Assembly: GCA_050230475.1 (NCBI GenBank)
Contig: JBFLGF010000042.1
Location: forward strand, 56,024-76,023
Reading direction: 5' to 3'
DNA length: 20,000 nt
From: Ancylonema sp.
Lineage: Eukaryota
Position numbers and translations under genes: made by a program. Under the pieces are notes generated by a model that was not told the origin of the DNA, did no database searches, and worked only from the letters and a program-made list of their open reading frames with translations. Positions 1-20,000 of the stretch are shown one piece after another (the first letter of the stretch is position 1; each line of letters starts with the position of its first letter).

Positions 1-149
1 TGTCCAATTTGTTTTAATTTGCGGAAAATGGAAATGGTAACGAATATCGGAAATTGTTGAAGAATCTTTGGTGGTAAGTTTATGATGTATGGAACCCCTC
101 CCAAATGTAGAAGGTAAGTACCGTCGTGGTGTGTGAACTGTAGCCAGGA

Positions 150-1113
150 GTCCTGCCAGAAACTTGACCACGTTCTCGTCCATCATGCGGCCAATGACAA
201 TATGCAGTTGCTTCTTATTGGTGGAGTGTGCAGCTGAGTCTCCGGGAATGATGCCCGTGCAGCGTTCTTTGCACCATGTGGAAGGGATGTCCCAACGTCC
301 TGCTGGGCTTTTCACCATGCCTGCACCAGCGTTAGGGTGGACGTACTTGTAGTCTGGATTGTCGGAAAAGGGGGAGAATGGCGGTAACGCTTTGTGTTCT
401 TCATGACGCACGTTGTCTGCCGATTTGAAGGTGTCGGTTTTGTACACAGTCTGCGGCTCATACCCTGTGTCAAGGACGTCGCGTAGGTCACGAACTTCTG
501 AAGTGGTAGGTAAGGCATTTTGCAGATCGGACGGGGATATCCAATTTGTCCACACATGGATGGGTCCATGTACGTTGGAGCCGAAGTTTGTACCGTCGAT
601 GATGACTAAGTGTCCCAAGAAAGCATGCACCAAAGGAATCATCTCCTTCACCCATTCTGGTGTGTCTGCGGTAATGGCCTTAGTCCAAAAGATGTAGAGG
701 GGATGGTAGTTCTGGATGGTGTAAAGTTTTTGGGTCATGTGAACCAAGGTAATGAACGGGATGACTCGATGATCGTAGAGGCCGCGTAGCTTGCCATAGG
801 TCCTTGTCATTTCTTGGTTCTAGTTGGCGACCACTAAATCGACACCTCCTCGATCTTGGTAAAGTTTATGCAGCATGTCCAGCTTGTGATTCTGGACCTG
901 GAAAGGGAGTTGGTTGTCGTAGCCTTGGATGGCGCTGTCAGCAATCTGGTAATGATGACGAAGGGGTAGTTTGGTAATGACCGCACGGGAGGTGATTCTG
1001 CAAAGATCATCGTCTTCGCTGGAGGTGAGCCATCGCAGATTTTTGTCTGCGTAAAGAGCGATCTTCGTGCCAGGATGGTCGGGTCCGCTGCAGGGCTCGT
1101 GGATGTGTAGTCC
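150..1113 (-). pseudogene. DNMT3-like C5-cytosine DNA methyltransferase fold within the retrotransposon polyprotein; catalytic motifs degenerate, one in-frame TAG at 820-822
   Basis: Manual translation continuing ORF 820..1542 past its stop; the frame stays open to base 1. Motifs appear in canonical order: I GLHIHEPCSG, II WLTSSEDD, IV GGVDLVVAN*NQEMT, V GKLRGLYDHR, VI PLYIFWTK, VIII LGHLVIIDGTNFGSNVHGPIHVWTNW, then LRDVLDTGYEPQ, IX IPSTWCKERCTGIIPG, X IVIGRMMDENVVKFL. These parallel the DNMT3 segments FDLVIGGSPC, PVMIDA..SAAHRARYFWGNL, EMERVFG and LLGRSW. Confidence 0.8.
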
Positions 1114-2954
1114 CCTTTCCGAGTGGTTCTCCCGAAAACGTCGTAAGGTTTTTTGCATTGGTACGGCTCCCAGGATGTTGATGCCGTTCCATCGTGGTAC
1201 TGGTTGCGGATGGGTAATTAAGGTACGGGGAACTCGTCGAGCTCTGTCAATGTTGTTTTCCCCGAAGATGCGGATCTGTTGGTTGAGGTGTCGGCGAGAG
1301 GCTGGTGCCATAAGTTGTTGTCGTACTACAACGGAAGCGATTATTTTGGCGTCTGTAGATGGAGGGATTTCGCCGACACTCATCATGTGGCGGATTGTAG
1401 TCTGCTCCACAGGCCATGAAGCTCTGATGTATGTTTCTCTGCTGATGCCTCTCAATGTGGCCTTGGACCTGGCAGCGTCGTTCATATCGCGCGAATCATA
1501 GAGGTGCAGGAAGTGTTGGAGTCCCAGGGGTTTCTTTGACATGTCTATGTAGCGGTCGATTGCCTCTTAGTCCCGGGTGTACTCGTTGACTTCTGTAATG
1601 GTAAGTGCAAATTTGTGGTTCTATATGTAATCTCTGGGAATGTAGCTTGCGTGTAAGAGTAGATGTTTACCTCTGTTTGTAGGCACCGGTGGGTAATAAA
1701 GTCGATTGCGGGTGTTGCGAGTTGGAGGTGATGGGGTGCGGGAGTGACGACGTGAATTGGATGGAGCAGCTTCATCGATGGGGTTGAGCTGGATGTTGTC
1801 GACACCTCGCCTCGCTCTTTCTTGTAGGTAAATTTCGTCCCGCTGTGCCGTGGTAAGCAGATTGAGGTTGACTCCATGAGGTCGATTTCTGGTAATTTTT
1901 GGGGAAGGCACAGGAAGCAACTGTTCAGGAGATTGAAACATGGGAGAGTCGATCATGGGTGATACTACAGCATAAGGGATTGCTGCATACTCAGGAGATG
2001 GCGTGGCTTCTCGGGCGGGTTGGGTACAAGCGTAGATTTACTTTTAAGTTTCCGTGGTAAGACGAATGGGTCAGGTCGACGCTGTCGACACTCCTCGATA
2101 AATGCGTCATAAAATGATGATGTCCAATCTTCCATGTTGCTGATAGTGTTCAGCACTTGAGCCAAGTCTTCTTCCGGAACCATAGTGGACATTGCTAGTT
2201 CTGCTGCCTCTTTGGTTGATGGCTGTCGGGGTGTGTTAGGGTTGTAGGAAGTCGGTAATGTAGGATTTTGTGCCATCGTGGGCGTCTTTGGTAAAATGGA
2301 TGCTTGTTGTTGCTCTTCGGGTTCTGATTCTGTGTCCGCCGCTGCTAATTCTATAGCTGCTAGATCCGCTGCTACTGGCGGAAAGTGTTGGTGCAGCGGA
2401 AAGTGTTGTCTGTGTCATTGGTAAAGTATTGCACAGAGTATAAGTCTGATGAGTCGTATCGTGTGGGAAATTATTTTCGGAACAGCTAATATTCGGATTG
2501 TCAGGTAAAACATCGAACATGGAATAAACAGTGATAATATTGTTGTATGGTAATTCCTTGTCCTGTGGAATCGTATCGTAAAGTTGATATGATGTCTCAT
2601 GCAGGCATGTGTCTTCATTTTCAACTTCCCATGGTTTGGCTAACATTCCAATATCTGAATATCGTGGTGTTTCGTATGATCGAGGATAGTTCGAGAAAGA
2701 TGTAGCTGCTTTCGTTGAGTCGTCCATGATTGCATATTGTGGTGACGGGTAAAGTACCTTGTCATTGTCATCAGTTTTGTCCATATTATCACGTTGCATA
2801 GCTTCCAACTCGATGAGTCGCTTGTCGTCTGGCGTTGCATGGCTTCCAACTCGATGAGTCGCGTGTCGTCTAGTCCGAGGATTGTGTACGACCCATAAGG
2901 TATTGTCGAATCGTCGTGGTCCTCGACCGGTTTTCGCCACTCCAACGGTTTAAT
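1114..2954 (-). pseudogene. Uncharacterised, frameshifted polyprotein segment (~600 codons) between Gag and the DNMT-like domain
   Basis: Consecutive minus-strand ORF fragments (2640..2945, 2236..2940, 1965..2276, 1621..1956, 820..1542) join through a few stops and frameshifts. Partly Pro/Ser/Thr-rich; no recognisable domain. Confidence 0.55.
2792..2873. repeat. 41-bp tandem duplication (2 copies) causing a frameshift
   Basis: cgttgcat(a/g)gcttccaactcgatgagtcgc(t/g)tgtcgtct at 2792 and 2833. The peptide RLIELEAMQR therefore appears in two different frames of the ORF track. Confidence 0.95.
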
Positions 2955-4720
2955 TTATTGACCTGCGGGTAACGATAATGTTGACGATGGTGCGTGTAAA
3001 TTAATAGGTGCACCGTTACGTAACTGGTTACACTGTTGTATCGTGTGTCCCACAGCATTGCAATGAGCGCATCGGGCTCCTAGTGTATAATCCTTGGGTC
3101 CATATTGTCGTGTCTGACTAGAATTTATCGATTTCGGTTGTCCGTAAAATTTTCCTTTGTAATTTCCTTGAGGTTGTTGACCGATAGTTTGTTGATTCGA
3201 AGGTCGGTAAGGTTGCGTATGTCCGGTAGGTGTTGCAAATTTCATTGGTAAAATGAAGTCTTTCTTGTAGTGGCCGACTTGGTTGCAGGTGTAACATGTT
3301 GGAGGTTGTCGTTCGCCATTAGTATTTTGTCGATCTGTAGGTCTTTCGTTTTGTCGTTTTGTCGTTTTGTTGTCTGTACGTTGGAGTACTTGGTGTATAA
3401 GCCTTTCGGTCAAAAAATGTCGATTTCGGTATATAAGCGTCGGATGAATTTCTCGTTCCACCCGCAGCTCTCATGTCAGCTTTTTGTTTTGCCATGTATA
3501 ATTCGCTTTCATTGGCTTCTGTCATGATCTCTTTCCTTGTTAATGGTGCTTCTCGTGGATTTGCAAAGAACCGTTGTTTGTTGGTGTCAAAATACCATTT
3601 CTTAATATGATATTGGATCGGTAAAGGAATCACTTATAGTAAACGAAGCGCAAGTTGTTTGGAAGTCATTGCATTAGATCCTTCAATCACTGAAGCTGCA
3701 TCATTAAATTTTGCGTAAATTGATGAGACTGTATCCGTCGGTGAACAAACCATATTGTCCACTTCAATCAAATATTCTGCATATGAGGTACGGAATCTTG
3801 TTTCAATTGCATCGATGAATGCTTGTAATTCATGTGATTCTGGTTGACTTGGTGGCTGTGGTTCAGTCATACCATCGCCTCTTCCATGAAATCTGTGGTA
3901 AAATTTGTCGATAGAGTAATCACGCCACATTTCGCGTAAATATCTTGTGTTGGCGTCTCCTTCGTGGTCGGTCATAAAACTTTACCATTCTCGTTGAGCT
4001 TCTCCTTTACAATAAGCCCCTAGATTTCGAACTAAATCCATCTCTGCATAGCCAGTACATTTTTCCCGTTTAAGGATTTCGTAATGACTTAGTACTGAGT
4101 TAATAAATTCGTCTTGAGTAGTGCCCAATGCTCCGTGATACGGTGTGATTGGCGGTAAGGATGCCATATTATCTCCCCAATTTATACTCTTTCTTTCATA
4201 AGTTGGTACTGCTTGCGGTGGTGTTGGCGGAGGTTGTGACGGTTGAGTAGTTGATGGTGGAGTCGGTGGTTGGATTGGTGTAGGTACTTCTCTGTTCGAA
4301 GTCAAGTCTAGACTTTTAGGATTATATGAACTCGTGTCTGAGGATAGGCTAGTTTCCCTAGTAATAGGTGCTGATCCAAATAATCTTCTAGATGGATAGT
4401 TATTGTGTCGAAAATCAGGAGAATCAAATACATTCAGTGGTGTACTGTTTTGATTTCTTTGTACCGGAACTGTAGTGTCTGGGGTTGATTTTTCTGTTGG
4501 TAATTCACTTTGTGTTTTTCCAGATTGAACTTCTATAGTAATTAGGTTGAGAAAACTGGCTGGTTAACCGTATACTATCCTTTTCAGAATCACTGTTGTC
4601 AAACAAAAAGTTTGGTAAAGTAAACGTTCCAGGAGGGATGTCTACTGCTAGTCCCGTTTGTTGTAAATCCTCCAGATTGGCAATTTCCGTTAGTCTTCCG
4701 TTAATACGTTTCCACGGCAT
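2955..4720 (-). pseudogene. gag: Retrotransposon Gag-like protein with two zinc knuckles (interrupted by stops and frameshifts)
   Basis: ORFs 3982..4305, 3634..3975 and 3319..3633 share one frame, separated by single stops. A Pro-rich N-terminus and helical capsid-like core are followed by CYTCNQVGHYKKDF (degenerate last Cys) and CAHCNAVGHTIQQC (CX2CX4HX4C) in ORF 2955..3461. Probable start is the ATG at 4720. Confidence 0.75.
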
Positions 4721-5385
4721 AAACTTTGAGAATTCACGGTGTATATGTTACTTAAATGCAATTGTGATAAATCTTGTATAATAATGGTTGTGCACGGTTT
4801 TTTTTTTAAACGTGTATATCTGGTTAAGTAATGGTTGTCAATACTTCTCAGGCGTGCAATTGTTCCGGGTGAGCAATTCTCAGTGCGTTCAGCAGCAAAA
4901 GAATGTCGATGGAAGCAACTTGTAGTGGTAGAGACAGTAAATAACAATAAAGACTTGATAATATACTGTCAATCTGTATAAAATTTCACGGTATTTGAGA
5001 GTAAATCTTGAGTACGGTATCAGTCCAGAAAATTACATACGGTGTCAATATTCTGAATTTGAGAGTAATGGTACGAGACAATAATATATTGGTAGAGCTG
5101 TTTGTAAACGAGTGGCAAATACTGTGATGTCGAATGAATTGAGCTCGGTCGAGTAAATTCGAATCGGTTCTGGCAGGACGTGAGGTCGCAAGGTAAAATA
5201 TATGTGGGGGGTATCGGTAATTTTTATTCTCGTATTTGTAAAAAAAAGTCACAGAAAACAGAATGAACTTGCAAAAAAATGACCCTCCCTTACTGGCGCG
5301 ACAGGCTGGGTACTGCGTGATCCAGGTTGGGGACTAACTCTATGAAGTATATTCGTGGTTCTCTTAGTCACAAAGCGATAAGTCC

Positions 5386-6286
5386 TGTAACAACCGGTAA
5401 CGAATGGTAGCCAAAGCAAAGATTGCAAGAATCCTGATCACATAGATGCTAGGAATTTCACAATTTCACGAAATAACTTTCACAATGATGATTCAACACG
5501 CAAATTTCACAGCAGTTTCACATAATTTCACAGAGAAACCACGCAAATCGTACAAATATCAAGTCCAGCCACTCCTGGATGCACAGATATGATTCTATAC
5601 CAACTCAAAGAGGTAGATTTCACGTACCTTTCTTGAACCGAAATCCGTCGAAGTCACGTAGTTGGTGGTCAGAGACCCTTGGTGGACGAGGATAATTCAC
5701 AAATTGCAAAACGACAGCTTGATGCAAAGTAATCGCAAACGAGAGAACGCTCGATACACACGATGTTTGCGAAAGCAAAAGATCATAGATTACGCCAGGC
5801 AAAGAATTCAGAGTGTCGAGGAAAACAATGGTGTGCAAGGAAAATCTCTTCAACGTCAAATTCAGCGAAAGCTGAGATTTGAAAGTTGTACCAAAGTATT
5901 TATTGTAAAACTCGAATATTCTACTCGCGCGCTCGCTGGGATGCGCGTGGCAAGAAATATCTAAATTAACTCGGCGCGCACGCTATAATTGGCTGAAGAC
6001 ATCTCTAATTGATTCTGAGTTGTTGATCTAAAGGGCTACGGTCACGATTGCTATTGTTGACAAGTCTGACACGTAGTCTACTCAATTCAAATACAAAGGG
6101 GAGCTAGTCAAAGATTGACTGCTCGAAACTTTAATAAAAGGGCGCCGGTCACCGACGAAGCTCGGAATGAAATGAGCGGGGGCGGAGTCGTGACAAGGCG
6201 GAAAAACATAGCGGTGCGGCATTTTAATATTCTGATAGCTGGCGATTTATACACGCATGACAGTACAGGCATATACGGGCATGACA
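5386..6286 (-). repeat. Candidate 5' LTR of the minus-strand element (outer end well supported, inner end tentative)
   Basis: Outer terminus TGTCA at 6286 (minus). Possible inner terminus ...TGTTACA at 5386. AATAAA on the minus strand at 5899-5904. No second LTR in the window and no clear tRNA PBS. Confidence 0.35.
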
Positions 6287-6443
6287 GAGCTGCCAGTTGT
6301 GGGTTATTCTGACGCTAGCCATGGTGATGATGTCGACACGAGAAAGGGGCGGGCGGGGTATGTGTTTATGAGTGCTGGGGTTGAAGTCAGTTGGAAGAGC
6401 AGTCTTCTCGAGACAATTACCCACTCTAGTTGTGAGAGTGAGT

Positions 6444-6810
6444 TGTTGGTTTTTGAGGGTCTGTGAACTTTTGTCTTTAATATCGATTTTAGGGCTTAAG
6501 TTTAGATTTGCCGATTTTGTAGTTTTGCCCGTCGATACGATTACTTTGGGCCACGTGGAAGTGTGTCGATAATATTAGGTGACTTGGCATAATACTTGAA
6601 TACGTTTGGTGTTGACTTGTCAGTTCGATCAGTAGAGATCTTTGACTGGGAGGGGGCACGGATCACACTCGATTGTACTTAGTCTGAGCTTCCATACAGG
6701 ATTATGCAATCAATCAATCTAATTCAAACTTGCACTTTCGCTGTGAATGTTTGTTTCATGTGTGTGAAGACTATTACTTCTTGCATCGATGGCAGAAGAT
6801 AGCAACAACA
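6444..6810 (+). repeat. 5' LTR of inner copia (367 bp)
   Basis: tgttggttttt...agcaacaaca; direct repeat of 11334-11718 with roughly 30 substitutions and one ~18-bp indel (counted by eye). Confidence 0.97.
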
Positions 6811-9800
6811 TTGGTATCAGAGCAAGGTACTGCATTTTAGATGGAGATAAAGTTTATTTCCAAGCTTGGCGATCTAAGGCATCTGCAACACTCGATGACA
6901 GAGACTGTCTTGAGATATGCAAAGGATTAGAAACAGATCCAGAGGAAGTTTATCCAGCATACGATGATGGGCACTGGATCACAAATCTGGATGAGATGGA
7001 TCAATATATAGAAGATATTATAAGTTTCCGAAAGCGATCGAAGAAAGCTATGATGCTACTTATGGGACTTGTGAGTGAGGACATAGATACAACTCTTGAG
7101 TAATATGAGAGAATACCAGCAGTCATGTGGAAGTACCTGAAAGAGGAGTTCGACAAAGTGACACCGAAGCTGAAGCAGCTCTCTAAGCAGCGGCTAAATT
7201 CGTCCAAAGTAAATGAGAAGCTTCCAGCTCGAGACATCAAGAGTGACTTTTTGTCCATCATCAGAGCCTGCGCACATCAAAAATATAAAGTCAGCGAGGA
7301 GGATCAAGTGATGGCGCTGTTCGCAGGGATATCGAGAACAAAGTATGGAGTGCTTAAAAAGCTGTACTTCGGTCAAGCAAAGGCTCCTGGAATCAGCTGG
7401 GTTTGGGCACAGATGGGTGTCGATGAACTTGATGATCAAAAAGAGAAAGGTGAAAGACAAGCTGAAGCACTTGTTGCAAAATAAAACTATGCAATATGGA
7501 GTGCACAACAAAAAAAATCAAATCGAAGGCGAAGTGGTGGTGGTAATCGAGGAGGTGGTGGCAGAGGTGCTGGCAGAGGTGACTGTGGGGGATATCGAGG
7601 AGGCAAAAGTGATCGAGGAGGTGGTGCTGACAGAGGAGCAGGTGGTGGCCATGTGTGTTATACTTGTGGAAGGACGGGTCATTTTAGTAGAGACTGTCCA
7701 AGGTAAGATGAGAGTTGTGACTATTGTGGCGCAACAGGGCATATTGAATTTACCGGTTTCGAAAAATATAACATGGCTCCTCGGATGCTGAGAAAAGGCC
7801 AGGAGACGGGAATAAAATATGCACACGTGAAGGAAATCGATGAAGGTGGAGATCAGGGTCATGGAGAAATTGTGGTTGGGGAAATCTGGGACTGGTCGGT
7901 GGATGTGATGAGGAACGAGGCTTTCTTTGGGATGATGGATCCAGTCACCACTCAAGTGGACAAAGAGCATACTTCAAAACTATGGTCGTAATTCCGCAGG
8001 AAATTGTGATGCATCATCTCGTTGGGAGTGTGCGCGTTAAACAATGGGGAACGGTAATGCTGAATACAGAAGGGGAATGGGGAGGCATCACGCTGAAGAA
8101 TTGCTTGTACATTCCAGGCAGGCGAGTAAACGTTTTCAATGGACAAAAAGCAAGAGAACAGGGTTGGGAGTACACTTTCAGAGGTCTTGCAGTTGAAATT
8201 ATTCCCGTCTACAAAAAGGATGGCAAGCAGATCTGCACTATTCGAGAATCGACATCTGGACGCCCATACCTTAATTTTCACGTCAATTCGCCATGATCGA
8301 CAGGATGAGGGAGAAGCAGTTGTCGCAGCTATCGATGTCAACATGCTGCATGCACGTCTTGGTCATGCCAATGAGAGAGTTCTCAGAATTATGGTAAAGG
8401 GAGATCTTGTGCGAGGCCTCGAAGGTGGTATTTCTGATGCCATGCTGAACTATGAGGGCTGTAAGCACATGATAGACCCCATCCACGCCGAGATCCAGGT
8501 GCTGGTGTAAAGGTATGTCTGGGATGAATTTCTATAGATCTGGCGGGACCGTTCAATCCAGCGTCGATAGGTGGCGGAGCATACAACATGGTCATCGTCG
8601 ACGAGTACAGCCGCAAGTCTTGGGTGTAAATCTTGCGTTCCAAAGATGATGCAGCTCCTCGACTCAAATAGTGGATTGCGATCTGGCAAAGACAAAGTGG
8701 GAAAACTGTCAACAACCTTCGATCTGACAGAGGAGGGGAATTTCTTGATGGTGACTTCAGTCAGTGGCTGAAAGGCAAGGGCATTAATCATAAGAAGACA
8801 CCACCGAATACTCCTCAGGCAAACGCTATCACGGAGCGCATGAACAGGACTCTGCAAGATCGAGCACGTTCCATGCTCTTGCACATAAAACTTCCCCTTG
8901 GACTCTGGGCTGAGGCTATTTCTCATGCATCCTACCTCAAATATCGATTCCACGTGACAAATCTGCCTAAAACTCCAAATAAATGTGGACTGGCTCTACT
9001 CCAAACGTTAGTCATCTCCGCACGTATGGGTGCAAAGTGTATGTCTGAATGGAGAAGCGAGATCGGCAGGGAAAAATGGCAACGCTAGCATGGGTAGGAG
9101 TGCTGATTGGTTGGAATTCTGACAGTCCTTGTCATAGGGCCTGGGATCCCACTACGAACAAAGTGCACAACGTCGGTCACGCTCATGCTGACTCTCATGA
9201 ATTTGTCGGTGCTGGCTGGCGGAGAGGCCATAATATTGGCAAAAATGAGAAATTGTCAGAAAAAGAAATTGTTGCAGACATGGAGTGGCTAGATTTATCG
9301 ACAGAATGTGATGATGTGTTTGGAGGGGGTGTTCGTCGTGATGTTGCTGATCATCCTGGAAATTAAACTTGGCCTTCTAGTGAGGAAGTGGTTCCCGCTG
9401 TTGTGGGAAGTCCCTTGCCACAACTTCAGAAATCCCCTTCTCATCAGATTGACGATGCTCCAGAGTTGGTGAGTAATTCCAGTGGAGACGACAGTGACCA
9501 AGATTTGCTGGAAGATGGAGCTGAGTGGTACCCGGATGATGTAACCCCTGAGAACCCTAATTTAAATTTGGCACAAGAGAAAGTCCAAACAGTAGTTGAG
9601 GCTGCTCAAGATGTTGTACGAAGATCGACAAGAGAGAACAAGGGAATTCCAACTAATCATTTTTTTGCAGCCTATGTAGCAGGACTAGATGTCGATGCAA
9701 AAACTCCAGAGTGAGTGAAAGAAGCTCTGAACAGTCGAGACAAATAAAAATGGCAACAAGCAATGGATGCTGGGACGGGAAGTTTGGAGGAAAATGAGGT

Positions 9801-11256
9801 CTTTCGTCTGGTCGATAGGCCAAAGGGCAAGAGGGTCGTCAAGTTTAAATGGGTACTTCGGATCAAAAGAAATGCAGATGGAACAATTGAAAAGTACAAA
9901 GACAGGGTTGTTGCAAAGGGTTTTTCTCAGGAATAGGGTGTGGAATATGATCAAACGCTTTCTCCTACAATCAGGTTTCAAAGTATACGCCAGCTGATAG
10001 CCATGGGGGCATCGACAGGGTTGCATATGCACCAGATGGACGTCGCAACTGCATTTCTGTATGCTCCGCTAGTGGAAGAAATTTACATGGAGGCTCCATA
10101 TGGCACTTGTAAGCCAGGGGAGGAGGGGAAGGTCTGGTTACTGCTTCGATGTCTGTACGAATTAAATCATGCACCAAGGGGATGGAACCAGCATATTGAT
10201 GATGTGCTGAAGGATATGGATTTTTGACGTCTAGAGTCAGATTTTGGGCTATACATTTTAGGAGAAGGCCCAAAAACTCTTTATCTGTCTCTATATGTCG
10301 ACGACTTGTTTCTTTTATGCATTGAGATCAAGAAGATTGGGGGTGTCAAGTCTGGACTTGGAGAACGGTACAACATGAAAGACTTGGGAGAGGCGAAATT
10401 TCTCTCGGGTTTGGAAATCAGACGGCAGCCAAATGGCGATGTATTCTTATGTCAGGAAAAGTATGCTCGAGAAGTTATAGATAAGTTTGGCATGTCTGAA
10501 TGAAAGTCTGCATCGACTCCCCTCGAGATTGGTGTTAAATTTTCTGTAAATGAGGGAGGTGCTTCTGAGGGAGCTATCATTGAAGGGGTGGGTTACAAAT
10601 CTGCCATGGGCAGTCTTATTTCTTTGTGTTCGGGTACCCGTCCAGATCTGGCTGGTGCAGTCAACTCTCTTTGCAGATACAGTCAGAATACAGGCGCGCA
10701 GCATTGGGAGGGGGTCAAAAGATTGTTGCGATATGTGGAGGGACCAGTTGGTTTTTGTCTTATGTATCAGAAAGGTGCAGCTTTGCCAGTACTTGGCTAT
10801 TCAGATGCCAGCCATGGAAATGACTGTGACACTCGGAGGGGGCGTGCTGGATATATTTTTCTCAGTGGGGGTGCTGCAGTTAGCTGGAAGAGTAGCTTGC
10901 TAAACACTGTTACCCACTCCAGCTATGAGACTGAATACTTGGCATTAAGTGCGGCTGGTAACGAGGCTCTCTACCCCCACCAAATGAAAGGAGTGGGGAC
11001 TTGGTGGGAAATCAGGTGTATTGATCTTGGGTGACAATGAGAGTTCTTTGAAATTGGCTGAAAACCCTGTATTTCATAAGAGGTCGAAGCATATCGAAAT
11101 CAAGTATCATTCAATTCGTGAGAGGGTAGCAAAGAAAAAGATTGAGCTATAGTTTGTGAGGAGTGAGGAGCAGGCAAGAGATATGCTCACAAAGCCTGTG
11201 TCAGTCAAGGTGTTGAAGGCAAATTGTGATCTTGTTGGGTTGGTGTATGAGCAGTA
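6789..11256 (+). pseudogene. Copia gag-pol polyprotein pseudogene (Gag with RGG tract and two zinc knuckles, GAG-pre-integrase, integrase, RT, RNase H)
   Basis: [14 protein letters not shown] (~7655-7700); LHARLGH (~8345); DLAGP, LRSDRGGEF and PQANAITERMNRTL (8537-8860); HQMDVATAFL (~10030); YVDDL (10294-10308); [25 protein letters not shown]. Many premature stops and frameshifts. Confidence 0.95.
6812..6823 (+). promoter_or_regulatory. Primer-binding site complementary to the 3' end of initiator tRNA-Met
   Basis: TGGTATCAGAGC one base after the end of the 5' LTR; canonical plant copia PBS. Confidence 0.95.
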
Positions 11257-11323
11257 AGGGCAAAGGGTGTGAAAAAATGATATCGATGGTTATCGTTTTT
11301 TGGAGGGGGAAACAAAAGTTCCC

Positions 11324-11333
11324 AGGGAGGGGG
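11324..11333 (+). promoter_or_regulatory. Polypurine tract of inner copia
   Basis: agggaggggg directly abutting the TG of the 3' LTR. Confidence 0.9.
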
Positions 11334-11718
11334 TGTTAGTTTTTTAGGGTCTGTGAACTTTTGTCTTTAATATCGATTTTAGGGCTTAAGTTTAGATTTG
11401 TCGATTTTGTAGTTTTTCCCGTCGATATGATTACTTTGGGCCACCTGCCGGTGTGTCGATAAGACTAGGTGATTTGGCATAATACTCGAATACGGTTGGT
11501 GTTGACTTGTTAGTTCGATCAGTAGATATCTTTGACTAGGAGGGGGCACGGATCACACTCGATTGTACTTAGTCTGAGCTTACATGCACAGTTCTGCAAT
11601 CAATCAATCTACTTCAACCTTGCAATTTTGTTGTGTGTGTTTGTAACTCTGTGAATGTTTGTTTCATGTGTGTGAAGACTATTTATTCTTGCATCGATGG
11701 CAAAAGATAGCAACAACA
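11334..11718 (+). repeat. 3' LTR of inner copia (385 bp)
   Basis: tgttagtttttt...agcaacaaca followed by the TSD tgagt. Confidence 0.97.
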
Positions 11719-12139
11719 TGAGTACCTGGCTCTTAGTTCTGCTGGCAATGAGGCCATTTACCTCAGCCAAATGCAAGGGGAGCTTGGAGTTGGGGACAAA
11801 GGTGGTGTTTAGATTCTTGGTGATAATGAGAGTTCGATGAAGTTGGTTGAGAATTCGGTTTTTCATAGACGCTCGAAACATATTGGGATCAAGTGGCATT
11901 CTATCAGGGAGCAGGTGGCAAAGAAGAAGATAAGGCTGGAGTTTGTAAAAAGTGAGGATCAGGCTGCAGATATGGTGATTAAGGTTGTGCTTGTCAAAGT
12001 TTTGAGGAAGAATTGTGTTTTGGTTGGGTTGGTTGAGGAGGGGTGATTTTATTTTGTGCAAGTTGTTGTGTTTTGTGAAAAAATCGATATAATGTGTTAT
12101 CGTTTTTGGAGGGGGAAACAAAAGTATCCAAGGAGGGGG

Positions 12140-12587
12140 TGTTAGTTTTTAGGGGCTCTGAACTTTTGTTGTCATATCGATTTTCCCGATCTGTTCGTTG
12201 TAGTTTGAGTTTTTGTCGTTATTTAGCAAGTGCCGGCCGAACTTGTTAGTGGTGATTGTGCCGATAAGTTATGGCCAGTCAGCTTAAGTGTTGATAAGTT
12301 TTAATCGATGTGGCATAACGCTAAGTTGTGATTGGTGTTGACTCATATAGTTTCGATATGTTGTTAGACGCTCTGTCGATCACACTCAATTGTACTAAGA
12401 GTGGACTTGCACGCAAGATCTTGTAATCAGACTTTCTATCTCAAGCTTGCACTTTTGTTGTGTTGATGCTTGTAATGTCGTGATCGATCGATTCATGAGT
12501 TGATTAAGAGTTGAACTTTATTATTGCAAAGATGGCATAAGAAAGTTCTCATACTTCTTGCATCGATGGCAGAAGATAGCAACAACA
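12140..12587 (+). repeat. 3' LTR of outer copia (448 bp)
   Basis: Starts tgttagtttttagg after a PPT. Ends tacttcttgcatcgatggcagaagatagcaacaaca, identical to the end of the inner 5' LTR. Interior only patchily similar (e.g. gatcacactc.attgtact). Confidence 0.9.
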
Positions 12588-12897
12588 TTGTCCGCTCACA
12601 AATGCGACTAACAAATAGGCGCAACACTATACTACATGTCCTACAAACCATGTTGACATTTAAACTAAGTTCTTTGCCTACACAACGTGCAGACCCGTAT
12701 TGTCCAGCAAAACCCCGGAACAACCCGGCCAACAGGCATGTGCCGCGGTATCGGCAACGTTAAATAATTGCCAACCCGGAAAAACTGTTATAACGATCGG
12801 TATGCCCGTTATACCATGCTCCTTTTGGCAGACCTTGTCGCTATAACAAATTATGCCTTGAGGAATGTGAATGGGTATCACACACGTTAGTTGAACG

Positions 12898-14251: not shown

Positions 14252-17114
14252 CTATTGTTGGACTCTCGACCTACGCACCCCCCGTTGTATCGAATTTCCA
14301 TCCACATTCCGGTCTTCGTTTCGTATCATCTCCAAGAACTTCCGCACCTCCTCTGCGCTCCCGTCCGCGATGTGTGCGTCCACCAAGGCTTCATAGGTGC
14401 CCTCCTTGGGACTGTAACGAGGAATGGGAAGATACAACAAAATGCAACATTTCATACTTGGTGGATAAATGTAATTAAGGGTAAATAACCCACAACTACG
14501 TTTTGTGGCGGGATTGTTGACAAAAATATGATGAAATAAAGCAAAACATAGAAGTAAAATATAGAATAAAATAAAATATGTTAAAATTTGATAAAAAAAT
14601 GATTTAAGCCAAACTTGGTCAACGTGTGAACCGTGGCTGAAAGGTGGCAAGACAATTAGTAAATAGTTCGAATATGGAGGTGGCTTGTCTCGAATAACGT
14701 GTACTACATTTTTTTGTCCCACCAACGCCCCCGAAGTGCACGATTCCGCAACTCAACTAAAAAAAAAGGGGGAAGAAATGAACATGCACGGGGCATGATA
14801 TATGTAGCGTATGCCCTGACCCCGCCCCCCCCTTCCCCCAACCTCATCCCCTCCCTCCGCATCCTCTTCATCACTCGTAGCGCATCCGAGAGTCGCCCCA
14901 AGTTGATCATGTGGGTGATGAGGGTGGTGTACGTGAAGTGGTTGGGTGGCACGCCGCCACGTGTCATCTCCCCAAGAACCCGGAGGGCATCCTCCATCCT
15001 CCCGTACTTGCTGAACCCAAAACCCGACGAACCCACAAAGCCACCAACATCAATTTTTGGGGTTCCCTTTCCACCCCTCAATCTTATTCCACCCCTCATT
15101 CTTATTCCACCCCTCATTCTTATTCCACCCCTCATCCTCGGGTACCCCTCCGCCCCCTCACCAGAACGCAAGGATGAGGGTGTTGTAAGAAACCGCATCC
15201 GGTTCCACCCCCCCTTTCCGCATTGCGCCCAACGTCTCCTCCGCCTTCAGGCACAGCCCCATTCTGCCGTAAGCGCCCAGAAGGGTGTTGAGGGTAATCG
15301 TATCCGGAACGAAACCGGAGGCGCGAAGATTCGCCAGCGCCGCCTCCATCTGAAAAAAAAAAAAAAAAAAAACAAAACAAACATGCAGACAGAGGCAGAG
15401 ACATGAGCTTGAGGTGGTGAATCCAGTACTCTGTTCATAACACCTGAGGTCACTGTTGTCCCCACCTGTGCCACCTGTCCCCTCTTTCCGTACAGCGCCA
15501 TCATTGCGTTCCACACGTTCAAGTCAGGTGCGAATCCCTCCTCCGCCAGCTGGCGCATCGCCCTCTCCGCCTCCTCCCCCTCCCCCGTCTTTGCGTACAC
15601 CAGCACCACAGATTTGAGGAGCACGAATGAGCCCCTCACCTCCCCCCTACCCCTCATCACCTCCACCGCCCCCCTCAGCCTCTCCCCCTCCCCCCCCTCC
15701 GCGTACGCGTGCAGCAACGCGGAGAACGCGCATGCATCGGGTCTCAACCCCCTGGACCGCATTTCTGCCACCGTGGATTCTGCCGCCTGCCATTGGCCCT
15801 CCCTAGCGTAGGCTGAAAGGAGGGACGTGAAGGTGGCGTTGTTGGGCGCCACCTGGCGCTTCTGCATGGCCTCAAAAACCTCCCTCGCGTCCTTGGCAGA
15901 CCCACAGCGGCCGTAGGCGTCGATCAGGATGTTGTACGTGTCCTGCGGCAGAGGGCAGCCGCCCGCCCTCATCTCCCCCAACACTTTTGCCAACTTTGCC
16001 GCGTCCCCCGCCCGTCCGTATGCGGACAGAAGGGTGTTGAAGGTATACGTGTCGGGGGCGCACCCGCTCTCCCTCAGGTCGGCGGAAACGGCCTCCATTT
16101 CTGCCAGCTGTCCCTTCTTGCCGTGCATGCTGAGCATGGTGTTGAAGGTGTGGAGATTGGGGCAGCAATACTCCCCCCTCCCTTTTGCCATCTTCCCATA
16201 CAGCTCCCTCGCCTTCCCCTCCTCCCCAACCGCGCCGTACGCCGCAAGCAGGGTGGTGAGGGTGACGACATCCGCCTCCACCCCCTCCCCCAGCATCTCC
16301 TGCAGCAGCCGTTCGGCCTCCCCAACCTCCCCCGCCTTCCCCCTGAGGGCTATGAGGTGGTTGTACGACACGGAGTTGGGACGGTAACCCGCCCGCCGCA
16401 TCCGCTCTACCACCTGCGCAGCCCTCTTCCCATCCCCCAACTTCACGTACATCCCGATGAGGGAGTTGTGGGTCACAACGTCGGCGGCCACCCCCCTGGC
16501 TTCCATTTCCCGTACCACCCCTTCAGCTTCTTCCACCCACCCCCCCCTCCCGGCGGCTGCAATCATGCTGTTGTAAGTCCGTACTGACGGCTCCAGGCCT
16601 TGGAGCTCCATGTCCTTTATCAGCTGGCGAATCGTTTTCCAGGAGCCCCTTCGGCGGCCGTACACAGATATGATGATGTTATAAGTCGCTAACGACGGCT
16701 GCATCCCCTCACGTTTCATTTGTTCGAAAAGCGTCAGAGTTTCTTTGTACCGCCCCTCCTTAAAAAGAGCGGACAGATGGCGGGTGTGGGCAACGACTGG
16801 GGCGAGATTTCCGTCTGCCTGTAGACCGGATCAATGCAACCCGATGTGATGTCAGCGCAAACAGCGACATCATTACTGGAATGAGGTACCGGAATCAGTA
16901 CCTTGCGGGACAAGATGGGACCCTCCAACCTCGCAGGGGACTCGTCTAACTTCGCACCAGATTCTATGGTGCGAGGTATGCTGTGAAAGCGTCTCGGGAG
17001 GGGTGAGGGGGTGAGATGATGCAGGTGAGGCACTGTGCGAGGAGCTGTGGAAGGAGATGAAGGCAAAATATATGCATTGATTGAATGAGTCCCAAATATC
17101 CTGCTGCTCGACAT
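14252..17114 (-). CDS. P-class pentatricopeptide repeat protein (~693 aa, ~17 repeats), organelle-targeted, PPR10/At5g02860-clade-like; exons 17114-16902, 16818-15466, 15349-15162, 15010-14843, 14411-14252
   Basis: Tandem 35-aa repeats (TYN.LI..YG+.G...A...+.EM...G..PD). Four GT-AG introns with compatible phases (0,0,2,2) restore canonical repeats across the junctions (GQVAQ|MEAAL, ILAFC|KYG, EGMS|PKEGTY). Total 2082 nt, no internal stops. Exon 1 is Ser/Pro/Thr/Arg-rich like a transit peptide. Irregular repeats (RGSWKTI, DTYNILIDAYGRCGS, LLHAYA, VLLKSVVLVYAK) recall At5g02860/PPR10 from memory. The 3' end of the last exon is the least certain part. Confidence 0.9.
15069..15135. repeat. 18-bp minisatellite (~3.7 copies) in PPR intron 3
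   Basis: ttccacccctca(a/t)tctta repeated in tandem inside intron 15011-15161. Confidence 0.9.
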
Positions 17115-17699: not shown

Positions 17700-18245
17700 G
17701 GCTCATGCTCCACCACCTGGATCTTGGCAAGGAGATGGGATGCCGCCTATAGAGGATGTAGTAAGGGGAATATCGCAAGACCTTTTGCTAAGTCACGCGG
17801 TAGCCCATCACGACGTAGGGCAACACCAAGTTCTAGTTAATAGCACAACGCTCTAGGAGAGTTTTTCGAAAGCCGTGCTTCATGGTCTGGACCATACGGT
17901 CGGAGAGACCATCTGCTTGGGGGTGCTCACGGGAGGCAAGGTGATGATCTAATTAAAAGTGGGATAGAAGGTCCTGAGAATCACCTTTGAATTCGGAGCC
18001 TTGGTCCGTGACGACGTCACCCATGCGCCCATGCGACCCATGCGACCCAATAAAAATTCAAGCAAAGCCCATGCAGTTCTATAAAATGACTTATCAAGCA
18101 TAGCACATGGCACATACTCCACCCATTTGGTGGAATGTTCGATCACTACCAACACATACTTGTAACCCCGTTTCGTCACCGGGAACGGACCGGCAAAGTC
18201 AACACCCCACTTATATCCAAGCCCATGGATGGGAAGGGGTTGTAG
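17700..18245 (-). pseudogene. Ty3/gypsy integrase core relic
   Basis: Manual translation: LQPLPIHGLGYKWGVDFAGPFPVTKRGYKYVLVVIEHSTKWVE...(frameshift at cccatgcg x3, ~18020-18047)...VVTDQGSEFKG...HPQADGLSERMVQTMK...YSPYYILY. D-D-E triad visible. Confidence 0.9.
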
Positions 18246-19029
18246 CTAGTTTCTGTGTATTGTGTGCTTGCTTGTGCGGGATGTTTGTATCTAAAGTGAT
18301 CGGAAGCCGTGTGCCGTGTTGCCTACGCATCGTTGTACATTATATCGTTCTCCGTATTCTTATTACTATTGCAATTGTCGTCACCTTTGCAAGAAGTGTT
18401 GTCAACCGTTTCTCTACCATCATGGAATCGTTACTAAAGATGTGCACCGTTTCTTGTCCGCTGTGCCGGATAATCTCGCAGCGAATCATTCGGCCTCGTG
18501 TCTATTCGTGTTTATTCGCTATTTTTCACATCGTTTGAGATTCTAATCGTATTTGTGCGTAAACTTGAAGCATCGTGTTCGTACATGTTTTTTGCAACTT
18601 CATCTGTAAAAATTATATGGCTATTTGCTCTGAGCTCGTTTGGCAATAATTGTGGCGTGTTCTTAAACCATGCAAATGTCAACTCTTGATCAACCTCTAC
18701 GTTGTTTTTCAAGACCTTCCAGTATTTTGTAGTGCATATTAGTCTTTCGCGAGTAGTATTTTTTTGTACACTTAGCTGATAAATCACATATAACGCCACA
18801 TTTCCATTCCTAGGGTTTTGAGTAGAGAATCAATCTACAAATGACTCTAAACTAACGAGATTATGAATCAAAGGCCAATCCAGATGTTGTGAACTCAATG
18901 GAAAGAGCCAAGTCATCCATTACAACCCGCCAACATCAACGGCGAAGAAAAAGATAAATGGTGATGTTTTGTAGATTTTATAAAAAATCTCTCGATTTCT
19001 CAGTTTGTGAGAGATTTCGGTGACAAGTT

Positions 19030-20000
19030 GTTTACTGACTTTATTAGGCACGTCACCTATGCCCCAAATTCAGCTCTTCGAGTTCACCGACAACAACATT
19101 TTTTCCACCCGTCTTCATGTACCCGTTGCATTTGAGGCGCCCCGTCCTTCTTGTCGAAATACGTGCGCTCATGATGACCTGTTGGCCCGCAAAACGAGTT
19201 GTTCTCGATTTTTGTTGGGCACTCACGGCGAAGGTGTCCACTCTTTTCGCAATAGCACGCGCGCGTGTCACCGACAACTCCTCCGCTTCCACTCCCAATT
19301 TCCTTGCCTCTACCACCGCCACCGCCACCACCTCGCCCTACTCGGTAATTTTCCGTGCCACCCTGCCGACCACTCCACTTAGTGTAATTCGCTTCCGCCA
19401 CTAAGGCTTTTGCCGTCTCCTTCTCTTTCTCTTTTTTGCCATATAGTTCGTCGATACTCATTTGGCCCCACACCCAGCCAACTCCTGGTGGTTTCGGCAA
19501 AGCGTGGTAACTTTTCTTTAGCATGCCGTACTTTTATTTCGACATCCTTGAAAACAATGCCATAACAAGATCGTTAACATCCACGTTCAGTCCTTGATAT
19601 TGTGCTCCGCTCACGATTGTCATGAAGTCATTCTTAATCGTCCGGACATTGTCCGACTCGTTGACTTTGAACTAATCAAGCTTTTGCTTGGCAAGCTAAC
19701 GAAGTTTAGGAGAGATTCGATCATGGTCTTCGTGAAGCTTCTCCCACAACTTCATGGGATTGCGTCGATCACTTTCCACACTAGCCGCTATGTTGTCACT
19801 CACTAGCGACATCATCAACATAGATGCCATTTTCTTCCGTTTGTTAAAATATATCATGAGTATCGATTACTCATCCAAATCACCTAGATTCAAGACGTAT
19901 CTATTGCCATCAATTTAATGCTTAAATTGTTAGAATATTTTGGATAGCCATATGTTATGCTTGCTAGTCCAGTTGTAACCGGTTACTCTAACCGGGAGCA
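19030..20000 (-). pseudogene. gag: Copia gag relic related to the inner copia element
   Basis: LKKSY..LPKPPGVGWVWGQMSIDEL...ALVAEANY, an RGG tract and degenerate knuckles (CYCEKSGHLRREC) align by eye with inner gag LKKLY..AKAPGISWVWAQMGVDEL...ALVAK*NY. SMLMMSLVSD matches MMLLMGLVSED. Confidence 0.85.

Follow-up and report, generated by a model that had tools for sequence, protein, structure and literature searches.

A DNMT3-like domain without its catalytic residues, probably a pseudo-enzyme under selection, in a Gypsy-lineage retrotransposon family

The window, a stretch of 20,000 nucleotides from a contig of Ancylonema sp., opens with the minus-strand sequence of a repetitive element, in which a Gag region is followed by a DNMT3-like domain. 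The window ends 43 codons after that domain and so covers the 5′ part of the element only. The features of this part, all on the minus strand and given in the direction of reading, are listed below.

1..4800, minus strand: multi-copy repeat family; contigs from runs X1-X3 cover all 30 bins, and the 3′ part of the element lies past the window edge
3652..4149, minus strand: Gag core; tblastn match to the Gag of protein P0014 (E 1e-13, 28% identity over 183 residues)
3021..3299, minus strand: pair of CCHC-type Gag zinc knuckles, with damage to the first in the window copy; found with PF00098 (E 2.5e-6) and tblastn
1621..2950, minus strand: low-complexity Pro/Ser-rich linker, broken in the window copy; no protease profile match
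1129..1620, minus strand: upstream continuation of the domain's frame, of no recognised family; protein P0023 reads through the stop at 1567-1569
130..1128, minus strand: DNMT3-like domain, probable pseudo-methyltransferase; frame residues 147-479, with X at the stop (hmmsearch, AlphaFold2, Foldseek, VIA)
1069..1095, minus strand: motif I, PCSGPDHPG, in which F-x-G reads C-S-G; Phe159 is replaced by Cys and the first Gly (Gly161) is kept
1015..1017, minus strand: acid of motif II, Glu184; kept in the window copy and in P0019, absent in P0039
820..822, minus strand: premature stop private to the window copy (contig depth and P0019)
778..825, minus strand: motif IV and the former catalytic loop; no Cys, reading N-[WY]-[NH]-[QT]-E, with the loop length of DNMT3A
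679..687, minus strand: motif VI, with W-T-K for E-N-V
556..570, minus strand: motif VIII, HGPIH, with H-G-P-I for H-R-x-R
379..387, minus strand: target-recognition loop, with L-P-P for L-P-T
178..192, minus strand: motif X, GRMMD; relatives have G-Q-A-M-D, and G..MD is kept

The Gag region upstream of the domain matches that of P0014, an intact Gypsy-DNMT3 polyprotein with the order gag-protease-DNMT-RT-RNase H-integrase-PHD, which supports the earlier reading of the domain as retrotransposon-encoded. The window element belongs to a Ty3/Gypsy-lineage retrotransposon family with a captured DNMT3 domain and has itself decayed. At position 3256, in the damaged zinc knuckle, other copies carry another letter; insertions of 1 or 7 bases occur at 2070-2071 in other copies, relative to which the linker frame is shifted in the window copy. 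Because P0023 reads through the stop at 1567-1569, the domain is likely to form part of a longer protein. A profile built from the proteases of nine relatives gave no match in the six frames of the window, where the linker is broken in this copy. The spacing between the domain and the start of RT is too variable among relatives to predict the sequence past the window edge. No canonical primer-binding site or terminal repeat was seen by eye in 4100-6500, and no tRNA gene was found.

Two placements of the DNMT3 domain occur within the one group of elements: ahead of RT in P0014 and P0002, and between RNase H and integrase in P0015, P0017 and probably L023. In elements of the liverwort type (P0005, P0009, P0010, P0011, L005 and L006) the frame ends about 90-145 residues past the DNMT domain, so that Gag and protease, and not RT, would be translated together with the enzyme.

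From position 1566 to the window edge at base 1 the minus-strand frame holds one stop only, at 820-822, as the initial annotation had described it. An hmmsearch profile of 16 relatives, from which the window sequence was excluded, matched residues 147-479 with 124 bits (E 1.4e-30 at a database size of 5.8e9); the best score among 500 shuffles and one reversed copy was 4.8 bits. The closest relative of the window protein is P0014 (blastp, 26% identity over 359 residues, E 1e-31). When longer proteins were searched, one weak match emerged, to P0002, a Gypsy polyprotein of 1651 residues whose N-terminal part is a PF00145 domain (E 0.02), and it was with this domain that the set of 16 relatives, P0002 included and some of them named from Marchantia and Closterium, was retrieved. 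Profile-profile comparison of the rows of related fragments without the catalytic residues (hereafter dead) with active DNMT3 rows returned a probability of 100 and an E-value of 5e-46 over 360 columns. A word-based search of proteins of 287-914 residues gave no match to the window protein, and peptides of the C-terminal half, scanned against metagenome contigs, matched 70 stretches, none of them confirmed. Pfam gave no methyltransferase match in the ORF pieces, the read-through or 12 dead rows, and a sequence search of solved structures found nothing for the window protein or for a dead-only profile; surveys based on PF00145 would therefore undercount such elements.

Supplied with an alignment of relatives, AlphaFold2 modelled the domain with a pLDDT of 75 and a pTM of 0.81, a predicted fold that is partly lent by the active relatives in that alignment; from the single sequence the domain did not fold (pLDDT 32). 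Foldseek matched the model to DNMT3B (E 1.6e-13), and VIA aligned 270 residues with DNMT3A at a Z of 22.5 and an rmsd of 3.3. DNMT3A and DNMT3B lead the structural ranking and are the best matches among solved structures, at 13-15% identity to DNMT3; bacterial enzymes follow at Z 18-19 and DNMT3L at Z about 10. Motifs I-X of the C5-methyltransferases are present in order, in an alignment and a model built with active relatives. These results confirm that the window domain is DNMT3-like, with homology far beyond chance. The C5-methyltransferase scaffold described earlier thus holds, and where the absence of such a fold had been considered, Foldseek and VIA returned one that is closest to DNMT3.

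In both of the trees that we built from relatives, the domain adjoins P0014 (support 87/79, not starred). P0004 was omitted from one tree, and P0004, P0011, P0012, P0013 and P0016 from the second. The branch leading to the window sequence is long, at 3.4-4.3 changes per column where the median is 0.6.

C5 methyltransferases depend on a Cys, a Glu and a pair of Arg residues for catalysis. The motif readings given earlier for the window copy (PCSGPDHPG, NQ, WTK and HGPIH) were all recovered, but the accompanying loss of the SAM site proved to be partial: Gly161, Glu184 and, in motif X, G..MD remain, but Phe159, Asp223 of motif III (now Gln) and Gly248 of motif IV have been replaced. The sequence of motif I includes a one-residue insertion, common to the window copy and its active relative P0014. 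Motif IV, G-W-[PES]-C-Q in relatives, reads N-(stop)-N-Q here and is one residue shorter, with NQEM at 819-808. At least two base changes are needed at 5 of the 10 scored motif positions, in line with the earlier remark that several of the replacements take more than one nucleotide change. Sixty columns show conservation in 85% or more of relatives, and the window sequence keeps half of them (30/60). The losses fall on chemistry and target-base residues, none of which is kept (0/6, against 33/54 of the other conserved columns; Fisher p 0.006, or 0/6 against 30/54 and p 0.024 without the re-scoring of three columns), a class of six that follows from the established C5 mechanism but was chosen after the alignment had been seen. 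Without the Cys, the Glu and either Arg, the domain should not methylate cytosine, as judged from its sequence. As a natural variant of the active site, motif VI reads E-H for E-N in P0016, P0078 and P0080, a Closterium protein and two others.

The replaced residues recur in distant relatives. An exhaustive search returned 97 hits, 13 of which group with the window sequence at about 25-90% identity (P0018-21, P0023, P0024, P0026, P0032, P0036, P0038, P0039, P0053 and P0057). The ten that we looked up are ENA proteins on single contigs of 563-1569 bases and may be decayed themselves. None of the seven dead-clade fragments that span motif IV has the catalytic Cys; six read N-[WY]-[NH]-[QT]-E, and the seventh begins partway through the motif and has the Glu only. 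The Glu of motif VI, present in 16/16 relatives, is found in 0/7 dead rows, the window included, where the position reads W, W, S, Y, Y, H and Y and is thus W or Y in five. In motif VIII the first Arg is present in 3/5 dead rows and the second in 0/5; the Thr of the recognition loop is missing from all seven rows, and an aromatic residue stands at position 305 in 7/7. One fragment, P0039, lacks both the Gly of motif I and the acid of motif II, an observation that counts against SAM binding as a conserved property. The new residues (Asn, Glu and two aromatics) are common to dead members that are about 25-50% identical. In a quick tree, six dead rows lie on one side of a branch and 20 active rows on the other with an SH-aLRT of 99, a split for which long-branch attraction is possible and whose columns include the motifs themselves; P0019, P0039, P0053 and P0057 were left out as too short. 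Taken together, the alignments point to an old pseudo-enzyme clade and not to a loss in a single copy.

Close copies tell the same story. At 80% likeness, runs X1, X2 and X3 gave 2826, 1566 and 409 contigs on 1-4800, with none from X5, and 344, 206 and 73 contigs on 480-1180; X1 and X2 are one sample, and variants were counted from depth-weighted contigs. At the stop, 820-822, another letter stands in 90%, 95% and 100% of the depth of the three runs, respectively, and the natural protein P0019 reads through this position. The 40 variant rows listed, of 111, contain no residue change at any of the positions for Cys, Glu, Asn and Arg, and the Thr at the old Asn position of motif VI shows silent variation only. 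The lowest maximum share among these rows is 0.51, so the other 71 most probably represent variants carried by a minority. Among contigs at least 80% alike, the dead residues prevail.

Changes that segregate in the domain frame are mostly silent: 23 of 30 among the listed rows, where 9.0 are expected from matched change types (p 1e-7), corresponding to a dN/dS of about 0.13 by a site-count approximation. The excess is absent from the other two minus frames. It is found in residues 243-345 (12/13 silent, p 1.5e-5) and in the former catalytic loop at 778-819, with four silent changes and no replacement listed (p 0.012). No indel listed in 480-1180 reaches 20%, and one 40-base skip stands at about 11% of X1 depth. 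Changes private to the window copy are silent in 3 of 10 cases, against 2.7 expected. It follows from the silent excess that the family keeps the domain frame under purifying selection, and from the neutral private changes that the window copy has decayed. The initial annotation had named two outcomes that would speak for mere decay, a family consensus with Cys, E-N and R-x-R and a dN/dS near 1; what we found is that neither other copies nor distant relatives have the Cys, the Glu or the second Arg, and that dN/dS is well below 1. Its proposal that the family lost catalysis and kept the fold agrees with these results, with the dead residues family-wide and the frame under purifying selection.

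As a control for decay, we kept 80 of 108 metagenome loci of active relatives. Pieces of these loci, the longer ones with up to seven stops, retain the Cys in 29/29 cases and the Glu in 27/31. The two Arg of motif VIII are kept in 20/32 and 24/32, figures that one of the two search patterns could have raised, as it held motif VIII; most of the loci carry A-H-R-P-R or decayed forms that do not fit that pattern. The dead signature, or a match to the window Gag, occurs in 0/80 loci. Since decayed active relatives keep their Cys, ordinary decay does not produce the dead pattern. We consider it very likely that the domain is a pseudo-enzyme under selection.

Among known systems, the nearest are the streptophyte Gypsy-DNMT3 elements (KnitGypsy-Dnmt3), described in the available part of the report as retrotransposon-borne DNMT3 with conserved key functional residues (PMC5890265). 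Going by that description, they share with the window a DNMT3-type domain in a Gypsy-lineage element, the lack of introns and purifying selection, and both the Gag and the domain of the window match the intact polyprotein P0014. The key residues conserved there are, however, replaced across the dead clade, and unlike in KnitGypsy-Dnmt3 and P0014, no protease match lies between Gag and the domain in the window, where the linker is broken. By sequence the window domain would therefore be a derived offshoot of the Gypsy-DNMT3 group and not an ordinary member of it.

DNMT3L and DNMT3B3, as far as the portion available describes them (PMC7608744), are likewise DNMT3 folds (here a predicted one) without catalytic residues that are kept by selection; they are host gene products, whereas the window domain belongs to a multi-copy repeat with a Gag. 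The domain model aligns with them over 171-193 residues at Z 9.6-11.6, compared to 270-280 residues at Z 20.7-22.5 for active DNMT3A/B, and unlike them it keeps the recognition region and motif X. The window domain derives from a transposon-borne DNMT3 and not from DNMT3L. SymbioDIRS-Dnmt3 and SymbioLINE-Dnmt (PMC5890265) and the EpiLTR DNMTs (10.64898/2026.05.21.726589) are also retrotransposon-captured cytosine methyltransferase domains, but in the accessible accounts they belong to other element classes or DNMT clades. SymbioDIRS-Dnmt3 is described there as active (PMC5890265), and the accessible text of the 2026 preprint reports further captured DNMTs with no mention of inactive forms (10.64898/2026.05.21.726589). 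In the literature searched, with subscription journals and preprint supplements outside its scope, we found no description of a selected dead transposon DNMT. Retrotransposon-borne DNMT3 is thus already known, and a dead form under selection in such elements appears to be new.

What the domain does can be approached from the old active site. It holds features that are either kept or new: the Asn, the Trp/Tyr, the Glu, an aromatic side chain in the pocket for the flipped base, and a flexible loop that has not changed in length. Residues 251-259 of this loop have low confidence in the AlphaFold2 model and hence do not belong to the fold core; its length is nonetheless kept and its changes are silent only, which counts for the active-site face. 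Counted from the Cys position, the loop is as long as its DNMT3A counterpart, and it carries three basic residues. A binding surface at this site would most likely be one for DNA, given that this face meets DNA in the parent fold and that the Gypsy-DNMT3 parent is thought, in the available text, to act on element cDNA (PMC5890265). Our best guess, held tentatively, is a non-enzymatic DNA-binding module at the remodelled active-site face. The captured DNMT3 domain has lost its catalytic residues and stays under purifying selection; it would be made within a Gag-linked polyprotein, may travel in the particle as active relatives do, and would there grip DNA, either its own cDNA or target DNA, without flipping and methylating cytosine. 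Such a grip would shield the element cDNA or tether it.

Against DNA binding count the canonical contacts, which are lost with the second Arg of motif VIII and the recognition-loop Thr. The basic residues of the loop are absent from the distant fragments P0024, P0038 and P0036. Net charge, -3 for the window domain against +10 for P0014 and from -6 to +12 among relatives, does not separate dead from active domains. The missing protease match upstream bears on how the domain would be released and packaged, and is counted against a packaged module. A canonical base-flipping 5mC reader is doubtful, as the residues that hold the flipped cytosine are those that were lost.

The domain could instead act as a partner, in the manner of DNMT3L or DNMT3B3, binding an active DNMT3 of the host or of a sister element and blocking or redirecting it, as an anti-silencing factor or a helper. 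The loss of the DNA-contact residues agrees with such a role, and within the dead clade few parts are as well kept as the helix that follows the loop (D-x-R-[VIL]-x-P-F). This helix aligns with the DNMT3A helix RLFFEFY, which we take to be the DNMT3L-binding face; its second Phe is, however, Ile here, and it lies within the fold core, where conservation would be expected regardless. Both known dead DNMT3 forms work through active DNMT3, according to the part of the review at hand (PMC7608744), and moss DNMT3b performs de novo and heterochromatic methylation in the sections available (PMC6453930). The clade is very distant from host DNMT3, at 13-15% identity, and overall we regard a partner role as possible but clearly less probable than DNA binding.

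It is rather unlikely that the domain is a folded relic with no job of its own, kept merely to stay in frame and to fold within the polyprotein. The columns it keeps are mostly scaffold, and its branch, several times the median length, is what relaxed constraint would give; but a flexible loop is under selection, the Asn, the Glu and two aromatics have become common at about 25-50% identity, and, measured against P0014, Gag has diverged as much as the domain (30% and 27% identity). A useless 1-kb domain could also be deleted, yet no listed indel in 480-1180 is frequent.

A new chemistry is more improbable still: a rebuilt site of Asn, His/Asn, Glu and an aromatic residue might carry out a different reaction, with or without SAM. 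Newly conserved polar residues do stand at the old catalytic site, and the window copy retains Gly161 and Glu184 of the SAM site, but both the Gly of motif I and the acid of motif II are missing from the one fragment P0039, residues differ among members at the His/Asn and Gln/Thr positions, and no known methyltransferase motif has been rebuilt. Least credible of all, at a vanishing probability, is the decay of one copy of an ordinary active Gypsy-DNMT3 element, which would account for a window copy that is dead, has stops and frameshifts and carries neutral private changes, but not for dead residues that are the majority state among close contigs and recur in independent fragments, for active-family copies with more stops that retain their Cys, or for replacements that need two or more base changes at half of the scored positions; contig variants, silent excess, control loci and independent fragments rule out decay of the window copy alone, barring an active minority lineage among the variant rows beyond the 40 listed.

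Observed over expected CpG comes to 0.85 for the domain and to 0.99 for the stretch 1-4800; it is 0.33-0.75 in 8/8 active relatives and 0.62 in a neighbouring copia element, a comparison that spans different hosts and ages. The high CpG of the window element fits an absence of self-methylation and perhaps protection. We put forward, as a speculation with limited odds in its favour, that the dead DNMT3 covers new cDNA or jams the host DNMT3, that insertions would thereby escape CG methylation, and that the same would have arisen independently in other Gypsy lineages. If true, transposons would have made an equivalent of DNMT3L that works in the opposite direction. Separately, among 43 listed sites in 1-4800 there are 16 changes of C-to-T type private to the window copy, of which six lie in a CAG context (CHG background 17%) and three in CG (background 22%); the CAG changes give a hint of host CHG methylation.

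The usual guess for transposon DNMTs is self-methylation of cDNA. The available part of the report on such elements leaves open why retrotransposons carry DNMTs (PMC5890265). A clade that has dropped catalysis and kept the domain suggests that the domain is valuable beyond methylation, and the active sister elements P0014 and P0022 allow a paired comparison with it. Were the domain to bind DNA or DNMT3, it would represent a new transposon tool against, or around, host silencing.

The rest of the window holds further elements and a host gene. A decayed Ty1/copia element lies at 6444-11633 on the plus strand, with 300-base terminal repeats that are 91% alike and matches to gag, a protease-type domain and integrase; additional copies of its 3′ end and terminal repeat, which have diverged further (families D3, D4, D7 and D14), occupy 10990-12593. 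On the minus strand, 14704-16830 is a GC-rich host PPR gene with many P-type repeats, apparently with introns. Together with the named relatives from a liverwort and a zygnematophyte alga, this gene suggests a host among the non-seed green plants or algae. A broken Gypsy integrase fragment at 17716-18251 (minus strand) is 48-52% identical to the P0014 integrase and belongs to the same broad lineage, and 19084-19533 (minus strand) holds a fragment that resembles the end of a copia gag, with a weak zinc knuckle match.
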